Shown here: positions 1,431 to 46,999 of the stretch, in pieces
Position numbering within the stretch: position 1 is the stretch's first letter
Layout of the letters: each line of letters begins with the position of its first letter
Origin: a virus
UHGV virus genome: UHGV-0240527
Strand: one strand, 5' to 3'
Length of the DNA: 64,000 bases
Program-made: the position numbers and the translations under genes
The notes under the pieces: model-generated
Seen by the model: only the letters and a program-made list of their open reading frames with translations
What the model was told of the DNA's origin: nothing
Database searches by the model: none

Positions 1431-1943
1431 ATGAAAACTGTAGACGCTACCTTTGAAGTTGTAAAAGAAAAATTTACCATTATCTATGAAGCTGTTAATT
1501 GCTATGAAGCAAGCCACAACCTTGATAATTGGAAGTTTACGGATGACCATCAAGGCGGCGTGACTATTAAAAACCCCAACTATCAGTATAATGAATTTAA
1601 ATATGCAATCCCTTTACATTACAGCCTTAAACAGCTTTCAAGTGACTATGCAAAACAAGGCCGGGAAAATCCATCAAAAGAGGCTTACACCAGCTTACAG
1701 GGAGAACTAGAAAGGGATTTAGAGGCTTCAGAATATAACATTGCCGCGAAAGTTGTGGATGTAAACGGTAGAACGGTTTTAGACAGCTTTTACATTGGTT
1801 GCGCTTTTGATTGGGCCTATAGTGACGAGGAGAATTTAGAGGATAGACTAAGAGAAGAGGTGAACAACGCAGACGCAGAATCTGAAGTATTAGAACACTT
1901 GGAAGCATTAAAAGATTCAGTGATGAATATCTTTAAGGACTAA
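1431..1943 (+). CDS. hypothetical early protein
   Basis: ORF track; cassette and RBS upstream. Confidence 0.6.
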   Translation: MKTVDATFEVVKEKFTIIYEAVNCYEASHNLDNWKFTDDHQGGVTIKNPNYQYNEFKYAIPLHYSLKQLSSDYAKQGRENPSKEAYTSLQGELERDLEASEYNIAAKVVDVNGRTVLDSFYIGCAFDWAYSDEENLEDRLREEVNNADAESEVLEHLEALKDSVMNIFKD

Positions 1944-2031
1944 ATAGACCTCTTTACACGGGGCTATCAAGCTGATAAGATAGCCCCAGATAAAGAGCTT
2001 TACCACTAAATCCTAAACTGGAGATTCAAAA
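1944..2031 (+). promoter_or_regulatory. family A intergenic cassette (hairpin variant GGGGCTATC/GATAGCCCC)
   Basis: conserved TTTACA, 17-bp spacing to TAAGAT, conserved downstream UTR. Confidence 0.5.
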
Positions 2032-2328
2032 ATGAAATTATCAAATAAAGTCCGTGAAAATCTAAGCAAGTTGCTCAACAAAATTGATTTTATCGAGACA
2101 TCAAGGAATAGCCATGATGTTATGGAATGGTTACACGGCAAAATAAAAGGTCGCCGTGTAGTGATTTGCTTATGGAACAGTTGCAGGGAGTATAAAAAAC
2201 CTGTATTGCAAGTTAATATATACGATGATACTTTTAAAAGTCCTGTAAAGTCTAAAAGTGATTTATTAGAATCCTATGAGATAACTGTAAATGGCAAAGT
2301 ATCACGTAAAGAGGAAACACCATGTTAA
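2032..2328 (+). CDS. hypothetical early protein
   Basis: ORF track; cassette and RBS upstream. Confidence 0.6.
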   Translation: MKLSNKVRENLSKLLNKIDFIETSRNSHDVMEWLHGKIKGRRVVICLWNSCREYKKPVLQVNIYDDTFKSPVKSKSDLLESYEITVNGKVSRKEETPC

Positions 2329-2654
2329 TGACTGGTATCACTGCAATCATTGCCATTTTCGCGCTATATAAGGCATATAAAGCCTATAATCTAGCAAATA
2401 AGGCAATCACACAGCAGGTTAGCAATAGCCTTGTAGAAAGCTTTCTAGGGCGTCTCAGTGATGAGCAAATAAAGCGGTTAGAAATGAGCTTCAGATTCAA
2501 AGCGAAAACCTATCAGATAAGTGACATCTTCAAGGATGATTTCCAGTTAGCCGATGATTATAATTCTCTGATAAATGCTTTAAATATCAGTGACTTAAAA
2601 GACTACTACGCTGTAATTGTTCAAGAATTGAGCAAACGAAAACAAAACTGTTGA
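2322..2654 (+). CDS. hypothetical early protein
   Basis: ORF track; short overlap with upstream gene. Confidence 0.5.
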   Translation: MLMTGITAIIAIFALYKAYKAYNLANKAITQQVSNSLVESFLGRLSDEQIKRLEMSFRFKAKTYQISDIFKDDFQLADDYNSLINALNISDLKDYYAVIVQELSKRKQNC

Positions 2655-2743
2655 CACTTGTTTTTAGATAGACTAAATTACACATCAACGGGGAGGGAAT
2701 GACCTTCCCACTAAATAAAGTCCTTAAACTAGGAGATTCTAAA
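2655..2743 (+). promoter_or_regulatory. family B intergenic cassette: TTGACA, 17-bp spacer, TAAATT promoter followed by GGGGAGGGAATGACCTTCCCC UTR hairpin and GGAG RBS
   Basis: cassette occurs four times upstream of early ORFs. Confidence 0.5.
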
Positions 2744-3016
2744 ATGTATACTACTAACAATGGCCGCACTTTGAACGTCACACTACGTCACTATGTAGGT
2801 GGTGTCATGCACTTTGAAGATTTACAAGCTGAACAACATATCTTAGATTGGCAAGTAGCAGGACTCCAAAAAACTGCTACCGGATACGGCAAAAAGATTC
2901 CAACTAGCTGGAAAGTTCACTATGAAGGCCGTTTACGTAGAATTTATCAGGATGTATGTAGTAATAGCACATCAAGTTATATCATAGTAAAAGGTAAAAA
3001 GCTGCATTTAGCATAA
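2744..3016 (+). CDS. hypothetical early protein
   Basis: ORF track frame; start moved from 2699 to the ATG at 2744 that follows the conserved GGAG RBS (2699 lies inside the UTR hairpin). Confidence 0.55.
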   Translation: MYTTNNGRTLNVTLRHYVGGVMHFEDLQAEQHILDWQVAGLQKTATGYGKKIPTSWKVHYEGRLRRIYQDVCSNSTSSYIIVKGKKLHLA

Positions 3017-3101
3017 AGTACTTTACAAGGGGCTTATAGTTCGATAAAGTAAGCCCCAGATAAAGAGCTTTATCACTCAATCCTAAATTGGAGATTCAAA
3101 A
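3017..3101 (+). promoter_or_regulatory. family A intergenic cassette
   Basis: conserved promoter/hairpin/UTR module. Confidence 0.5.
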
Positions 3102-3506
3102 ATGACTATTAATAATCGTGAGTTATCAATCTTAAAAGCACGTTTGACCGTTAACCGGATTAATGTTATTACGTCATCAGCACCGGATGAGACATTGCAC
3201 AACATTATCGGGAAGATTCAAAGTGTTATCTTAGACGTTGAAAACGTAAAAAATTCATTAGCTGACGTTGCAGCAGGTATCACGCTAGACGGTGCACAAT
3301 ATGAAATGGCTGACATGTTAGGCAAATCTAAGGTAATGAATAAAGAGCTTGATTTAAAAATGTTCCGCTTTGCCGTGAAAGTGTGGCTATCTGTCGAGTA
3401 TGACGCAAATTTTGCAATCGCTGACTTTTTCGCAACATGGTTGCAACGTAATTTAACAAATCATGATTTCCGTGATATCTGCGACGTAATTTACGCAGAA
3501 CTTTAA
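3102..3506 (+). CDS. hypothetical early protein
   Basis: ORF track; cassette upstream. Confidence 0.6.
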   Translation: MTINNRELSILKARLTVNRINVITSSAPDETLHNIIGKIQSVILDVENVKNSLADVAAGITLDGAQYEMADMLGKSKVMNKELDLKMFRFAVKVWLSVEYDANFAIADFFATWLQRNLTNHDFRDICDVIYAEL

Positions 3507-3609
3507 AAATTTCTCTTGATTTTGGTTTTTAAAACAAGTAAATTACTAATCAACGGGGAGGGAATGACCTTCCCCACTAAGTAAAGTCCTTAAACTAGGA
3601 GATTCAAAA
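3507..3609 (+). promoter_or_regulatory. family B intergenic cassette
   Basis: TTGATT and TAAATT hexamers, GGGGAGGG..CCTTCCCC hairpin, GGAG RBS. Confidence 0.5.
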
Positions 3610-3813
3610 ATGGCTATTATTAACGGCTTAAACATTGAAACTACTCACATCAAAGATATCAAAGTTGGTGATATAGTCCTTTTTCACGGCGTAGAAAAAA
3701 CCGTCACTGAAAAGGATATCAAGGAGGATTCATTCATGGGCCGGACTCTCTTCGGTGATTCCTATTGCTTAGGTTACCTTGCAGTTTTAAAAGTTGTCAA
3801 AAATAACCGTTAA
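3610..3813 (+). CDS. hypothetical early protein
   Basis: ORF track; cassette upstream. Confidence 0.6.
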   Translation: MAIINGLNIETTHIKDIKVGDIVLFHGVEKTVTEKDIKEDSFMGRTLFGDSYCLGYLAVLKVVKNNR

Positions 3814-42581: not shown

Positions 42582-43757
42582 ATGGCAGTAGGTGAAATTC
42601 AAATTAGTGCCTTGCCACAAGCGGCCTTACCAGTTGATTTGAGTGATATCTTCCACCTTAAGCAAGGTGTTGAGGATAAAAGATGTACGCTTGAGCAGTT
42701 GTTAGCACCTCACGCATCTTTGAGGAATAACCCTCATGGTGTAACTAAATCACAAGTAGGTCTTGATAATGTTATTAACTCTCTTCAATTAGTTGCAGCT
42801 AATAACTTGTCAGATATTGTAAGTGTTGCTGAGGCAAGAGCAAATCTACAAATTATGTCGTCAGAGGAAGTGAATAACTTAATTCAGCAACATATTGACG
42901 ACAAAAGTAACCCACACAATACAACGAAAGCACAGGTTGGTTTAAGTAATGTTCAGAACTGGACAACATCTAATCTGTACAATGAAGATGCTGATAAGTA
43001 TGCTACCGCGAAAGCAGTTAATAATTTATACAAAGCTATCCAAGCGTCATATCCAGTAGGGACTATTCATCTATCTGTTAACTCTGCTAACCCATCCACT
43101 TACTTGCTTTGTGGAGGTACTTGGGAGTTAGTTTCTAAAGGTAGAGCACTAGTTGGTTATGATACAGATTCTAGACCTGTTGGTTCAACGTTTGGTTCTC
43201 AGACTGTAGCATTAACAAATAATAATTTACCAGCACATACTCACTCTATCTATCTAACAGGTGGTGGTCATACACACTCTGCAAGTGTATCTATCTCTAG
43301 TTTTGATTATGGTTCAAAAAGTACATCAACTTTTGATTACGGTACAAAAACGACTAATAGTGCTGGTGCTCACACTCACACGTTTAGTGGCACAACAAGT
43401 AATGCTGGTAACCACAACCATAGAGTCCCTATGAGGGGTAATGATAGGGGTGGCACAAACGCTATTACTGCATCTGCTGATGCTGGTGTTGGTAATGCTA
43501 TGTATACTGATTTAGCTGGTGCTCACACCCATAGCTTCTCAGGTACAACTGCATCATCTGGTGCTCATAGCCATACTGTCGCAATTGGTGCTCACAGCCA
43601 CACTGTTAATATTGGTTCGCACAGTCATACAGGCACTGTTACTGTTTCTAGCTCTGAGCATACACACTCAGGGACATCTGGTTCTGTTGGTGGTGGTCAA
43701 GCTTTCAGTGTTGAGCAGCCATCTTTTGTAGTGTATGTGTGGCAGAGAACAGCTTAA
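42582..43757 (+). CDS. tail fiber protein with His-rich HxH repeat domain
   Basis: C-terminal repeats GAHTHTFSG, GAHSHTVAIGAHSHTVNIGSHSHTG; C-terminus (AFSV..VWQRTA) shared with the next gene. Confidence 0.65.
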   Translation: MAVGEIQISALPQAALPVDLSDIFHLKQGVEDKRCTLEQLLAPHASLRNNPHGVTKSQVGLDNVINSLQLVAANNLSDIVSVAEARANLQIMSSEEVNNLIQQHIDDKSNPHNTTKAQVGLSNVQNWTTSNLYNEDADKYATAKAVNNLYKAIQASYPVGTIHLSVNSANPSTYLLCGGTWELVSKGRALVGYDTDSRPVGSTFGSQTVALTNNNLPAHTHSIYLTGGGHTHSASVSISSFDYGSKSTSTFDYGTKTTNSAGAHTHTFSGTTSNAGNHNHRVPMRGNDRGGTNAITASADAGVGNAMYTDLAGAHTHSFSGTTASSGAHSHTVAIGAHSHTVNIGSHSHTGTVTVSSSEHTHSGTSGSVGGGQAFSVEQPSFVVYVWQRTA

Positions 43758-43767
43758 TTTCTTTACA

Positions 43768-43788
43768 GGGGCTATAAAGCCCCTTTTA
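43768..43788 (+). terminator. hairpin GGGGCT-ATAA-AGCCCC plus TTTT between the two fiber genes (attenuator/terminator)
   Basis: read directly. Confidence 0.5.
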
Positions 43789-43803
43789 AGAGGAAAATTC
43801 ATA

Positions 43804-46353
43804 ATGGCAGATTACAAATTGAGTCAGTTAAACTCAATCGACACAATTCGTTCAGAAGACCTATTGCACATCAGAGTTAAGAAAAGACCTGAAATGTTGG
43901 GTGACGAAGACCGTAGAATGACCTATCAAGACTTCTTAGCTTCCTTCAAACTAGAAAGGTTTGTTCAGATTGCTGGAAGCACTATGACGGGGGATTTAGG
44001 TATTGTCAAGTTACTTTACGGTGGTAAGGCAGTATTTGACCCTACAGGTTCTTCTGAAATTACTATTGGGGATGTTTTAAAGACTTTTAAAATTAACTCA
44101 AATGGGCTTAAACTCACTATTGCAGATGCCACAAGGTCGGCAACTGTTTATCATACTTTGAATAAACCAAGCCCTAATGAACTTGGTATGAGAACTAATG
44201 AAGAGAATGATGCAAGATATGCAAGGCTTGCTGTTACAAACACATTCTCTGGAACTCAGAACATTCAAGGTGATGCTAACTTACTTCGTCTTAGAAACCA
44301 GAATGCAAATAATGCGCAATATATTGAGGGTGTGAACTTAGATGGTTCAGCTAGATGGTGGGTTGGTATTGGTAGTAATGGCTCTGATGAAGTAAAACTG
44401 TACAATAACAAATACAACTCAGCTTTGACTATTGCAAGCAATATCTCTGTTAATAAGTCTTTAGCAATCACTGGACAAGTTCAACCTTCAGATTTCTCTA
44501 ACTTAGATGCTAGATACTTCACTCAGACAGTTGCTAATCAGAGATTTGCACAGTTAGCTGGCAATAATACTTTTACAGGTGCTAACACATTTAGGACTAT
44601 GAGTGTTATTTCAAATGCTGCTGCTATCACACTGCAATGTGCATCAGCAAACGAATCCCTGTATCTACTTGCAAAAGATTATGAAGGTGGAAACTTATGG
44701 TATCTTGGTAAAGGTAGTTCAGGTGCTGGTGTAACTATCTACAACTATACCACTAACACCTCTTTGGTCTTAGATGCTGCTGGAGTATCAGCAAATAAAA
44801 ATGTCAGAATCACTGGACAAGTTCAACCTTCAGATTGGGCTAACATTGACTCTAGATATATTCCGGCAGCAACATTAAGTACAATTGCAAGAACTAATGC
44901 AAGGAATACTTTTAATGGTGTACAGACAGTTGTTACGGATAATGAAGGTCTGATTGTTAAAAACTCTACTCAGAATAGACCATTATATATTCGTGGTGTG
45001 GACACTACTAATGTATCAAGATGGTGGATTGGTGTTGGTGGTGCTGATACGAATGATGTTACCCTAAATAACAGTTATTCTGGAACCCAATTGGTTCTCG
45101 GAAATACAACATCATACATTAACAAAACATTGACTATTGCTGGACAAGTTCAACCTTCAGATTTCTCTAACTTAGATGCTAGATACTTTACGCAAAGTGC
45201 TAGTGATAGCAGATACCTAAGAATCAGAAGTACTAGTTTTAATTTAGGAAACGGTGAAAAGTGGGCTAAAATCGCTACTGTTGTAATGCCACAATCAACA
45301 TCTACGGCAGTCATTGAGGTTTTTGGAGGTGCTGGTTTTAATGCGAATAACCCATACCAAGCAGGTAAGTGTGAAATTGTTTTACGAACGTCAAATAATA
45401 ATCCAAAGGATTTAAATGCTGTAGCTTGGAGAACAGCAGATAATGCCCTCATCACGGATATTGGTTATATTAACACTTCTGGTGACACTTATGATATTTA
45501 CTGTAAGGTTGGTGGCTACCAAAATTCTACGGTATCTAGGGTTCAATCTTCTAGTAATGCAAGTGTACAGTTGTTTGAAGTCCCGCAAACATTTGATGAT
45601 GCTCCACAAGGTATTGTGAAGGGTACACTTGCAAGGTACTACACAAGTTTGCAAAAACCAACCCCTTCAGATATTGGTGCATACACTAAAGCAGAGACTG
45701 ACCAGAAAATTGCAGAAGCAATTAGTGACTCTACAGACCTGAATAAAATCTATCCAGTAGGTATCGTGACGTGGTTTAACAGTAATGTCAACCCCAACAC
45801 AGCACTTCCTGGTCTAACTTGGACGTACCTGAACAATGGTGTTGGTAGAACTATTAGAATTGCAGCAGCAAACGGTTCAGATGTTGCGACAACTGGTGGT
45901 TCAGACTCTGTAACGTTATCTGTTGGTAACTTACCTTCACACACGCACAGCTTCTCTGCTACTACTTCATCATTTGACTATGGTACTAAGACTTCTAGCA
46001 CAACTGGTAACCACAACCACAACAGAGGTACTATGGAGATTACTGGTTCATTTGGTTACTTCAGAAGTGACGCTAGTAGCTTCTACACAGCAAGTGGTGC
46101 ATTCTACCTCGGTAGTCAGGCAGGTTCTAAAGGGTATACTGGTAACAACTTTACTAATGGTATCCCTGTCAACTTCAACGCATCAAGAAACTGGTCTGGT
46201 GTAACGAATACAACAGGTAACCACAGCCACACTGTTGGTATTGGTGCTCACAGCCACACAGTTAGCGGTAACACAGGTGGTACTGGTTCTGGTTCAGCAT
46301 TTAGTGTTACTAACCAGTTCTATAAGTTAATGGCTTGGGTAAGAACTGCTTAA
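43804..46353 (+). CDS. large tail fiber protein with internal tandem repeats and HxH repeat domain
   Basis: three copies of ITGQVQPSD(F/W)(S/A)N(L/I)D(A/S)RY; C-terminal HxH repeats (GNHNHN, GNHSHTVGIGAHSHTV); start moved to ATG 43804 after the hairpin. Confidence 0.65.
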   Translation: MADYKLSQLNSIDTIRSEDLLHIRVKKRPEMLGDEDRRMTYQDFLASFKLERFVQIAGSTMTGDLGIVKLLYGGKAVFDPTGSSEITIGDVLKTFKINSNGLKLTIADATRSATVYHTLNKPSPNELGMRTNEENDARYARLAVTNTFSGTQNIQGDANLLRLRNQNANNAQYIEGVNLDGSARWWVGIGSNGSDEVKLYNNKYNSALTIASNISVNKSLAITGQVQPSDFSNLDARYFTQTVANQRFAQLAGNNTFTGANTFRTMSVISNAAAITLQCASANESLYLLAKDYEGGNLWYLGKGSSGAGVTIYNYTTNTSLVLDAAGVSANKNVRITGQVQPSDWANIDSRYIPAATLSTIARTNARNTFNGVQTVVTDNEGLIVKNSTQNRPLYIRGVDTTNVSRWWIGVGGADTNDVTLNNSYSGTQLVLGNTTSYINKTLTIAGQVQPSDFSNLDARYFTQSASDSRYLRIRSTSFNLGNGEKWAKIATVVMPQSTSTAVIEVFGGAGFNANNPYQAGKCEIVLRTSNNNPKDLNAVAWRTADNALITDIGYINTSGDTYDIYCKVGGYQNSTVSRVQSSSNASVQLFEVPQTFDDAPQGIVKGTLARYYTSLQKPTPSDIGAYTKAETDQKIAEAISDSTDLNKIYPVGIVTWFNSNVNPNTALPGLTWTYLNNGVGRTIRIAAANGSDVATTGGSDSVTLSVGNLPSHTHSFSATTSSFDYGTKTSSTTGNHNHNRGTMEITGSFGYFRSDASSFYTASGAFYLGSQAGSKGYTGNNFTNGIPVNFNASRNWSGVTNTTGNHSHTVGIGAHSHTVSGNTGGTGSGSAFSVTNQFYKLMAWVRTA

Positions 46354-46432: not shown

Positions 46433-46627
46433 ATGCCTACAATCCTAGCAATTCTTCTAAAAAATCTAGGTAGCTTCTTCTGGAAACTCATTTTATCCCT
46501 TCTAAGTGAATACATGATTGAGAAAGTGTTCTTTAAGCTTGCAAGATACCTTGCGAGTAAAACAGACACACCTATTGATGATGAGTTCGTAGATAACTTA
46601 GAAAAAGCTTTTAAGGGGGAGAAATAA
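46433..46627 (+). CDS. small hydrophobic protein (holin-like candidate)
   Basis: 64 aa, N-terminal hydrophobic segment ILAILLKNLGSFFWKLILSLL; charged C-terminus. Confidence 0.4.
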   Translation: MPTILAILLKNLGSFFWKLILSLLSEYMIEKVFFKLARYLASKTDTPIDDEFVDNLEKAFKGEK

Positions 46628-46999
46628 ATGAAGTGGCTAGAGGAAGCTTTTAAAAATAATATTGGTGCAATTGTAGTTGGTATTTTTAGTGTTATTGGGA
46701 TGTATACCACGATGCAGGTTTCAAGTGGTAAACAAGAAGTGTCTGTCACAACAAAGTTACAACAGCTAGATAATTATTCCAAAAGTAACTATTCAGCTAT
46801 TCGTGATTTACAGTCTGACATGAGACTGATTCAGCTAGGGATGGAGAACCAGAAAGTTCAGTTAGAGAATGTTAAGGGTGAAAACGCAAAACTTACCAAA
46901 ACCCTTGATAAATTCTCTGACAGTGTGAACAATCTGGCTCAATCAGTATCAGCCTTGCAAGCTATTACTGAAAAGAACACAAAGAATACTGAAAAATAA
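46628..46999 (+). CDS. membrane-anchored coiled-coil protein
   Basis: N-terminal TM segment IGAIVVGIFSVIGMY followed by helical region. Confidence 0.45.
   Translation: MKWLEEAFKNNIGAIVVGIFSVIGMYTTMQVSSGKQEVSVTTKLQQLDNYSKSNYSAIRDLQSDMRLIQLGMENQKVQLENVKGENAKLTKTLDKFSDSVNNLAQSVSALQAITEKNTKNTEK

Follow-up and report, generated by a model that had tools for sequence, protein, structure and literature searches.

Predicted gp37-type tips in the two tail fibres of a wV8-like Felixounavirus and probable segment exchange at linkers of the long fibre

The closest described system to the one reported here is that of Bas63 (Escherichia phage JohannRWettstein), whose short tail fibre (STF, gp26) and long tail fibre (LTF, gp27) were solved by cryo-electron microscopy (Sci Adv 2025, PMC12609058). 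Our subject is the pair of tail fibre genes at positions 42582–46353 of the viral genome UHGV-0240527, a stretch of 64,000 nucleotides (hereafter the window), and we call their products STF and LTF following the Bas63 nomenclature. Bas63 belongs to the same genus and has the same gene order and the same two-fibre system. At the domain level, each of its fibres was shown to include, like T4 gp37, a collar, a needle bearing HxH motifs and a head, and the HxH motifs coordinate Fe in T4 (PMC12609058). The Bas63 LTF contains five beta-helix repeat domains joined by linkers described as a 'triple alpha helix and turn', and that study reported variable tips and, unexpectedly, variable beta-helix domains (PMC12609058). 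The HxH motifs number seven in the Bas63 STF and six plus one HHxH in its LTF (PMC12609058), compared with nine and four in the window. As early as 2010, the genome paper of Felix O1 noted that the C-termini of gp76 and gp77 are similar to T4 gp37.

Exchange of fibre segments has been described for the T-even gp37/gp38 adhesins, in which hypervariable segments lie between short conserved motifs and exchanges in or near these motifs result in chimeric adhesins (Tetart et al. 1996, 1998, as cited in Trojet et al. 2011, PMC3157838). Compared with that case, the exchanged units in the window include whole beta-helix domains of the shaft in three slots, beyond the adhesin tip, and the evidence for recombination here comes from sequence comparison. 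We propose, with a probability of about 0.85, that the two genes encode the STF and LTF of a wV8-like Felixounavirus, with gp37-type tips, a shaft of tandem beta-helix domains and an exchange of cassettes at the linkers and His boxes.

The window is, by its sequence, a Felixounavirus of the wV8 type. Over its full length the fibre locus is 96.6% identical at the nucleotide level to Escherichia phages ECOH1 and KEP3, and 235 phage records match it, nearly all of them Felix O1-like. The gene order is that of wV8: baseplate wedge genes, an open reading frame (ORF) of 100 amino acids (aa), STF, a terminator, LTF, two small ORFs and then td/frd on the opposite strand, which in the wV8 order encode thymidylate synthase and dihydrofolate reductase. 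The protein wV8 gp82 (loci L001 and L007 of our comparison) has 100% identity to STF, which is also orthologous to Felix O1 gp76 and Bas63 gp26. The LTF orthologues are wV8 gp83, Felix O1 gp77 and Bas63 gp27; LTF itself matches two proteins already present in public databases (P0001 and P0002) at 100% identity, and the value falls to 95% for ECOH1 and to about 91% for wV8 and the O157 typing phages. Since synteny is kept, STF is identical to that of wV8 and identical LTFs are found in the databases, we regard membership in the Felixounavirus STF/LTF pair as certain on the basis of these sequence comparisons.

Homology of the fibre tips to T4 gp37

Both fibre proteins have C-terminal regions with multiple HxH motifs, nine in STF and four in LTF (Table 1). 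These motifs account for 18 of the 24 histidines in STF and 8 of the 10 in LTF. When the residues were shuffled 2000 times, the mean number of HxH motifs was 1.4 for STF and 0.11 for LTF, with maxima of 7 and 2, respectively. The C-terminal regions of the two proteins are 32% identical over 221 columns (E = 6e-17), with STF ending in QAFSVEQPSFVVYVWQRTA and LTF in SAFSVTNQFYKLMAWVRTA. A preliminary description of this locus, drawn from the sequence without database searches, had reported HxH-rich ends and a common C-terminus in both fibres, and these counts and termini bear it out.

That description had also likened the tips to T4 gp37, and the resemblance is supported by direct homology of sequence. 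In single-sequence searches, the crystallized gp37 tip (2XGF; Bartual et al. 2010) aligns with STF residues 145–362 at E = 1.8e-26 and with LTF at E = 5.5e-7; profile searches gave 4.8e-24 for STF and, with 41 sequences, 1.1e-13 for LTF. The collar, which matches Gp10_C, and the Bas63 study both agree with this assignment. The STF collar profile matches T4 gp10 (2FKK and 5HX2; E ~1e-12) as well as the start of 2XGF. The LTF collar aligns to that of STF (BLASTP, E = 6e-17), and PF21939 is a precomputed match for most close LTF homologues. Besides the collar, the fibres have in common with the gp37 tip the FDYGTK repeat, a short variable head flanked by ascending and descending strands that carry HxH motifs, and a hydrophobic C-terminal strand. 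All seven gp37 HxH motifs pair one-to-one with HxH motifs of STF, in which those at 219 and 360 are extra and lengthen the array toward the collar, and the STF head segment aligns to the gp37 head segment between gp37 motifs 3 and 4. The four HxH motifs of LTF align to gp37 motifs 1, 2, 5 and 6, with an insert of 65 residues at the position of the gp37 head. LTF thus differs from the gp37 tip in its shorter needle and larger head (65 aa). The Felixounavirus fibres are each the product of a single gene, 391 and 849 aa in length, whereas T4 gp37 is the distal half of a four-protein fibre.

Sequence variation in the tips was examined in relatives of the window. The comparisons here and below used 120 protein homologues, 27 related viral contigs and, for the typing of shaft domains, 140 LTFs; most of these sequences are metagenome-assembled contigs. 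The STF head is 10–32% identical in most relatives as opposed to 58–100% in the flanking needle, and hypervariability in STF is confined to this head; the N-terminal 140 residues are conserved at 89–100% among the 27 loci. The LTF head is either 18–31% or 95–100% identical among relatives. LTF tips occur with four HxH motifs in 88 of the 120 homologues and with six in 30. The family of the LTF head (RGTMEITG...ASRxWSG) was also seen, at about 35% identity, in P0168, an STF homologue of 415 aa from another phage; head families are therefore common to both fibre types.

These results support the assignment of a T4 gp37-type tip, consisting of a collar, a needle and a head, to both fibres as judged from their sequences. 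The alignment to gp37 implies that each chain reverses in the small head to give a six-stranded trimeric needle. The chain would begin in the collar, run out along the needle, turn in the small variable head and return to end in the collar. By analogy, the common C-terminus AFSV...RTA would be placed in the collar as well; no alignment here covers AFSV...RTA. In the trimer, each HxH motif from three chains would contribute to a set of six histidines around one metal ion, which is Fe in T4. Up to nine such sites are predicted for STF and four for LTF, and they would rigidify the needle that presents the head to a lipopolysaccharide (LPS) receptor. We infer from the aligned motifs that HxH motifs bind metal in this phage.

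Several observations weigh against this interpretation. The AlphaFold2 monomer models had a mean predicted local distance difference test score (pLDDT) of 63.8 for full-length STF and 52.7 for full-length LTF, with values below 50 across the LTF tip and of about 45–55 in the STF needle. When the STF monomer model was searched against the PDB with Foldseek, weak matches to gp10 alone (E = 0.058) were obtained and 2XGF was not recovered. The Gp10_C score of the LTF collar, at 25 bits, is slightly under the Pfam cut-off of 27. Metal binding and the trimeric needle in this phage, moreover, are drawn from homology to T4. We judge the poor tip models not to be evidence against homology because a monomer predictor is limited in its handling of an intertwined trimer. 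As for folding chaperones, none resembling gp38 or gp57A was recognizable next to the fibres in the two ORFs downstream of LTF, which belong to families of unknown function; gp38 and gp57A are part of T4 biology and lie outside the definition of the fold.

The identity of the metal is a separate matter. The needle could bind a metal other than that of T4 gp37, such as Zn, or only some of its motifs could be occupied. The STF motifs at 219 and 360 are without a gp37 counterpart and LTF is without counterparts of gp37 motifs 3, 4 and 7, as might be expected in that case. The HxH sites of the T4 gp12 short fibre coordinate Zn. On the other side, the seven aligned STF motifs closely match the Fe-binding ones of 2XGF, including the GxHxHT/S pattern and the (V/A)xIG flanks. 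We consider a different metal or partial occupancy somewhat unlikely.

Repeat units and segment exchange in the LTF shaft

The preliminary description had noted three DNA repeats about 340 bp apart in the LTF gene. Three copies are indeed present, at 44467–44517, 44809–44859 and 45136–45186, with spacings of 342 and 327 nt, but the encoded peptide is exactly ITGQVQPSDFSNLDARY in copy 1 only, while copies 2 and 3 read ITGQVQPSDWANIDSRY and IAGQVQPSDFSNLDARY. The runs of exact DNA identity are 49 nt between copies 1 and 3, 29 nt between copies 1 and 2 and 24 nt between copies 2 and 3, far beyond chance in 3.8 kb. Rather than standing alone as short repeats, the copies form the most conserved ends of three whole tandem domain repeats (aa 124–237, 238–351 and 352–460), which are 31–39% identical to one another overall and nearly identical in the 17-residue motif. 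PF20744 (gp37_trimer) matches LTF three times (E = 9.8e-78; 256.7 bits, cut-off 21.7). With E ~1e-6, the LTF profile also finds the pyramid domain of T7 gp17 (residues 369–442). Foldseek searches with the unit bodies (pLDDT 75–87) returned T7 gp17 (4A0T, E = 8e-5) and the T4 gp34 rod (E ~1e-3) with template modelling scores of at most 0.31, which are low because a single chain was modelled where the protein is an intertwined trimer. The three LTF units may thus resemble in fold the T7 gp17 pyramid and the T4 gp34 rod (4UXE, 4UXG, 5NXH, 4A0T) by PF20744, by the gp17 profile and by Foldseek; at the sequence level, the units had no significant match to gp34.

Pfam and profile matches show the predicted LTF shaft to be a string of beta-helix domains with three clear tandem repeats. 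The ITGQVQPSDFSNLDARY motif is the conserved linker that joins these shaft domains, and degenerate versions of it precede unit 1 (KPSPNELGMRTNEENDARY) and the collar (KPTPSDIGAYTKAETDQK). The fifth shaft domain, D4, has no Pfam match; its model is beta-rich with a pLDDT of mostly ~75–87. D4 occurs in two very different allelic forms, being either 64–83% or 12–19% identical among relatives. LTF homologues of the SP22 type are covered by the query to about 56%; their divergence begins at D4 and they carry PF12604 (gp37_C). In a host-challenge study of another Felixounavirus, LTF mutations were reported at aa 497 and 534 (PMC6669636). These two positions would map into D4 of the window LTF.

The identity of each LTF segment to its relatives was tabulated in a matrix. 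The N-terminus, linkers, collar and needle strands were 47–100% identical (mostly 70–100%, with linker 3 the lowest), and aa 1–123 in particular were at 92–99%. In contrast, U1, U2, U3, D4 and the head flipped independently of one another between ~100% and 12–40%. The LTFs of wV8 and the window, for example, differ almost only in the U2 body (40%) and D4 (82%), with the flanks of U2 at 96–100% and the divergent block running from ~44584 to 44808. The opposite is seen with one contig (L025) that shares U2 alone: its U2 is 100% identical whereas U1 and U3 are at 32% and 33%, respectively. At the DNA level this contig is free of mismatches to the window across 44498–44838, has acquired two once 44900 is reached and diverges beyond this span on either side.

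The positions of such changes were determined by scanning all pairs for sharp transitions, defined as points with at least 97% identity in the 36 codons to one side and 75% or less to the other. The scan identified 20 distinct positions in seven clusters, at aa 139–149, 253–255, 336–341, 356–366, 617–624, 732–737 and 809. Linkers and His boxes, which together account for 26% of the gene, contain all 20 (0.26^7 ~9e-5). The change is sudden: stretches with zero mismatches give way to ~50% mismatch over a few codons. Clustering of the unit bodies at 70% identity gave 25 body types in 44 slot arrangements among the 140 LTFs. Most types are slot-specific, but type 1 was found in slots 2 and 3 as well, and types 9, 12 and 15 are shared by slots 1 and 3; the cross-slot arrangements included (1,7,1), (9,6,9), (8,1,6) and (10,6,1). 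In a relative at 97% identity that is represented by two contigs (P0011/L029), the second half of unit 3, 45040–45139, is replaced by a tract of the unit-1 type, with the left junction of this chimera at an RWW(V/I)G motif common to the units. Within the window itself, codons for the same amino acid agree at 34 of 39 sites of the motif, compared with 47 of 78 body sites (Fisher p = 0.002), and this excess of synonymous identity suggests homogenization at the DNA level.

An alternative is that the DNA repeats are the footprint of a constrained linker peptide in a duplicated domain, with no role in recombination, and that the bodies diverged in place. Conservation of the repeat motif at the protein level is strong in all relatives, unit number is three in 119 of the 120 homologues and body types are mostly slot-specific, all of which fit this alternative, and the Bas63 paper ascribes the variation to 'substantial sequence variation between species' rather than to rearrangement (PMC12609058). 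Neighbouring cassettes are nevertheless discordant, as in L025 and wV8, the transitions are abrupt and always fall in linkers, a given body type can turn up in more than one slot, and the L029 chimera and the synonymous identity excess in the motif have to be accounted for. Because of the discordant cassettes, the abrupt transitions, the cross-slot types and L029, divergence in place cannot yield the observed patterns, and we regard it as improbable.

Unit number was determined with a hidden Markov model of our own making. Variation in repeat copy number among related phages, which the preliminary description had proposed as a check, did not materialize. LTF had three units in 119 of the 120 homologues, and the lone two-unit homologue (P0072, 740 aa) is exactly one unit shorter in register. 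The latter is from a single metagenome contig with 6.7x coverage that ends 29 nt past the gene, and it could be either a true product of unequal crossing-over or an assembly collapse across the repeated linker. This LTF (P0072/L030, at 1501–3723 of ENA ERZ1505402 NODE_674) is otherwise 73–82% identical to that of the window. We consequently rejected the idea that the repeats lead mainly to changes in copy number, given 119 of 120 homologues with three units and a lone exception from a low-coverage contig. That the internal repeats drive unequal crossing-over, with the number of shaft domains and hence fibre length as the variable trait, is very improbable: P0072 and the arrangements (8,1,6) and (10,6,1), which resemble register shifts, are what it has in its favour, against the constancy of three units, the possibility of an assembly artefact in the low-coverage P0072 contig and the lack of variable repeat number among the 18 species of the Bas63 paper (PMC12609058).

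Since copy number does not vary, our results support a role for the repeats mainly as joints for same-slot replacement of cassettes between phages, with occasional cross-slot events. The expectation that the repeats promote shuffling of receptor-binding modules holds in substance, with corrections: exchange does occur at linkers and His boxes, but the pieces exchanged at the ITGQVQPSD linkers are beta-helix domains of the shaft, which may or may not take part in receptor binding, and copy number is fixed. The LTF head, the counterpart of the receptor-contacting part in T4, is exchanged at its flanking His boxes instead. The comparative data show that linker DNA and His-box DNA constitute islands of near-identity between otherwise very divergent alleles, such that homologous recombination between co-infecting relatives resolves there. 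Each exchange replaces a single domain body, D4 or the head as a cassette, and occasionally a cassette shifts between slots. We infer the trimer geometry and any effect of shaft cassettes on host range.

Some considerations argue against giving the linkers too large a part in this exchange. The breakpoint probability treats the seven clusters as independent, whereas the events are phylogenetically non-independent, and any homologous recombination would to some extent be expected to leave its breakpoints at conserved islands. Recombination across slots is rare because body types are mostly slot-specific. Chimeric assembly across exact repeats of 24–49 nt is possible for single-contig cases such as P0072/L030. 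Finally, the repeats are not thereby shown to be kept for recombination, the linker peptide being structurally constrained as well.

Feature map and neighbouring genes

Table 1 Features of the fibre locus in the window. Positions are those of the whole stretch; residue numbers refer to the fibre named.
Feature	Coordinates	Strand	Remarks
STF gene	42582..43757	+	391-aa ORF; phrog_2097 tail fibre, E = 1e-138
STF N-terminal baseplate-binding region and short shaft, aa 1–140	42582..43001	+	Role by analogy with Bas63 STF
STF collar domain, aa 141–216	43002..43229	+	Pfam PF21939 Gp10_C, E = 2.8e-18, 67.6 bits (cut-off 27)
STF ascending needle strand, aa 217–281	43230..43424	+	HxH at 219, 230, 264, 278; two FDYG(S/T)K repeats; 2XGF alignment
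STF head domain, aa 282–312	43425..43517	+	Hypervariable segment at presumed chain reversal
STF descending needle strand and C-terminal strand AFSVEQPSFVVYVWQRTA	43518..43754	+	HxH at 315, 329, 338, 347, 360
Intergenic hairpin AGGGGCT-ATAA-AGCCCCT followed by TTT	43767..43787	+	7-bp GC-rich stem; between STF stop and LTF ribosome-binding site
LTF gene	43804..46353	+	849 aa; phrog_4277 tail fibre, 1349 bits; wV8 annotation
LTF N-terminal baseplate-binding region and first, divergent shaft domain, aa 1–123	43804..44172	+	Function by analogy with Bas63
LTF repeat unit 1 (U1), aa 124–237	44173..44514	+	Linker 0, beta-domain body, motif copy 1 ITGQVQPSDFSNLDARY; Pfam PF20744
LTF repeat unit 2 (U2), aa 238–351	44515..44856	+	Ends in motif copy 2; body ~44584–44808
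LTF repeat unit 3 (U3), aa 352–460	44857..45183	+	Ends in motif copy 3
LTF fifth shaft domain (D4), aa 476–615	45229..45648	+	Variable cassette
LTF linker LQKPTPSDIGAYTKAETDQKI and collar domain, aa 616–712	45649..45939	+	91–100% conserved; breakpoints at aa 617–624
LTF ascending needle strand, aa 713–740	45940..46023	+	HxH at 713, 737; one FDYGTK repeat; breakpoints aa 732–737
LTF head domain, aa 741–805 (RGTMEITG...NASRNWSG)	46024..46218	+	Hypervariable, presumed receptor-contacting cassette
LTF descending needle strand and C-terminal strand AFSVTNQFYKLMAWVRTA	46219..46350	+	HxH at 807, 816; 89–100% conserved; breakpoint aa 809

The start of LTF was assigned to the ATG at 43804 (MADYK...) rather than to that at 43735 because of the ribosome-binding site AAGAGG upstream, the agreement with the wV8 annotation and the N-termini of the homologues, all of which start with MADYK. 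The wV8 tail fibre at this position is roughly 848 aa. A longer ORF from the ATG at 43735 (872 aa, 23 more) was rejected: it overlaps the end of STF, spans the hairpin and is used neither in wV8 nor in any homologue. The upstream ATG is probably a mechanical extension of the ORF. As to the intergenic hairpin, wV8 has an annotated Rho-independent terminator at the equivalent position, but the T-run is short, and for that reason the hairpin was missed by a consensus scan for terminators. The hairpin could lower the transcription of LTF relative to STF. Partial occupancy of LTF has been observed in Bas63 virions (PMC12609058).

STF contains two NPHxxTKxQVGLxNV motifs, at aa 49–67 (42726–42782) and aa 109–127 (42906–42962). 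A second linker-type motif is thus seen in STF in two copies, NNPHGVTKSQVGLDNVINS and SNPHNTTKAQVGLSNVQNW, with no beta-helix domains in between.

Downstream of LTF, a 64-aa ORF at 46433–46627 (+) belongs to phrog_402, and its orthologue in L029 has a precomputed match to PF26925 (Phage_PM2_Gpl). It is followed at 46628–46999 (+) by a 123-aa ORF with an N-terminal hydrophobic segment, a coiled coil and a very weak similarity to Rz-like spanins. The region 46433–46999 is conserved at 82–98% (mostly 94–98%) in all relatives, even in those with differing fibre tips.

Proteins identical or nearly identical to LTF (P0002, P0004, P0007 and others) have been deposited as 'hypothetical protein [Escherichia coli]' or '[Shigella flexneri]' from contigs of ~87–88 kb. 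These contigs are probably whole Felixounavirus genomes in bacterial assemblies, present there through contamination or a carrier state. The phage is regarded as strictly lytic.

Novelty and implications

The combination of gp37-like HxH tips with repeated shaft domains is already known and is ordinary for the genus; what our comparison adds to it, modestly, is the map of cassettes and the cross-slot chimera. We found no description of cassette shuffling in Felixounavirus LTFs in the literature that we covered; this coverage is incomplete, and the negative is weak evidence of novelty. The matched passages of a PhageMaP preprint on gene essentiality in Bas63 contained nothing specific to the fibres of that phage.

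The linkers and His boxes are natural joints, in frame and conserved at the DNA level, where Felix O1-like phages have already swapped fibre segments. Their map is ready for use in the engineering of chimeric fibres in a phage group that is employed for the typing and biocontrol of Salmonella and E. coli O157. The results also raise the question of why shaft domains vary as much as the tip. A bolder proposition is that the shaft, far from being a passive spacer, is a cassette system with three slots, or five with D4 and the head included, that draws on many types ~30–40% identical to one another, reassorts them among Felixounaviruses and uses the linker DNA as standardized recombination adapters. 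We hold this proposition to be doubtful at present. If it were true, so much reassortment would mean that the shaft domains themselves are under diversifying selection, for which lateral binding of O-antigen or LPS glycans, docking to the sheath when the fibre is retracted, or escape from a host factor that recognizes the fibre would be possible causes. Host range would then be set combinatorially along the fibre, beyond the tip alone.

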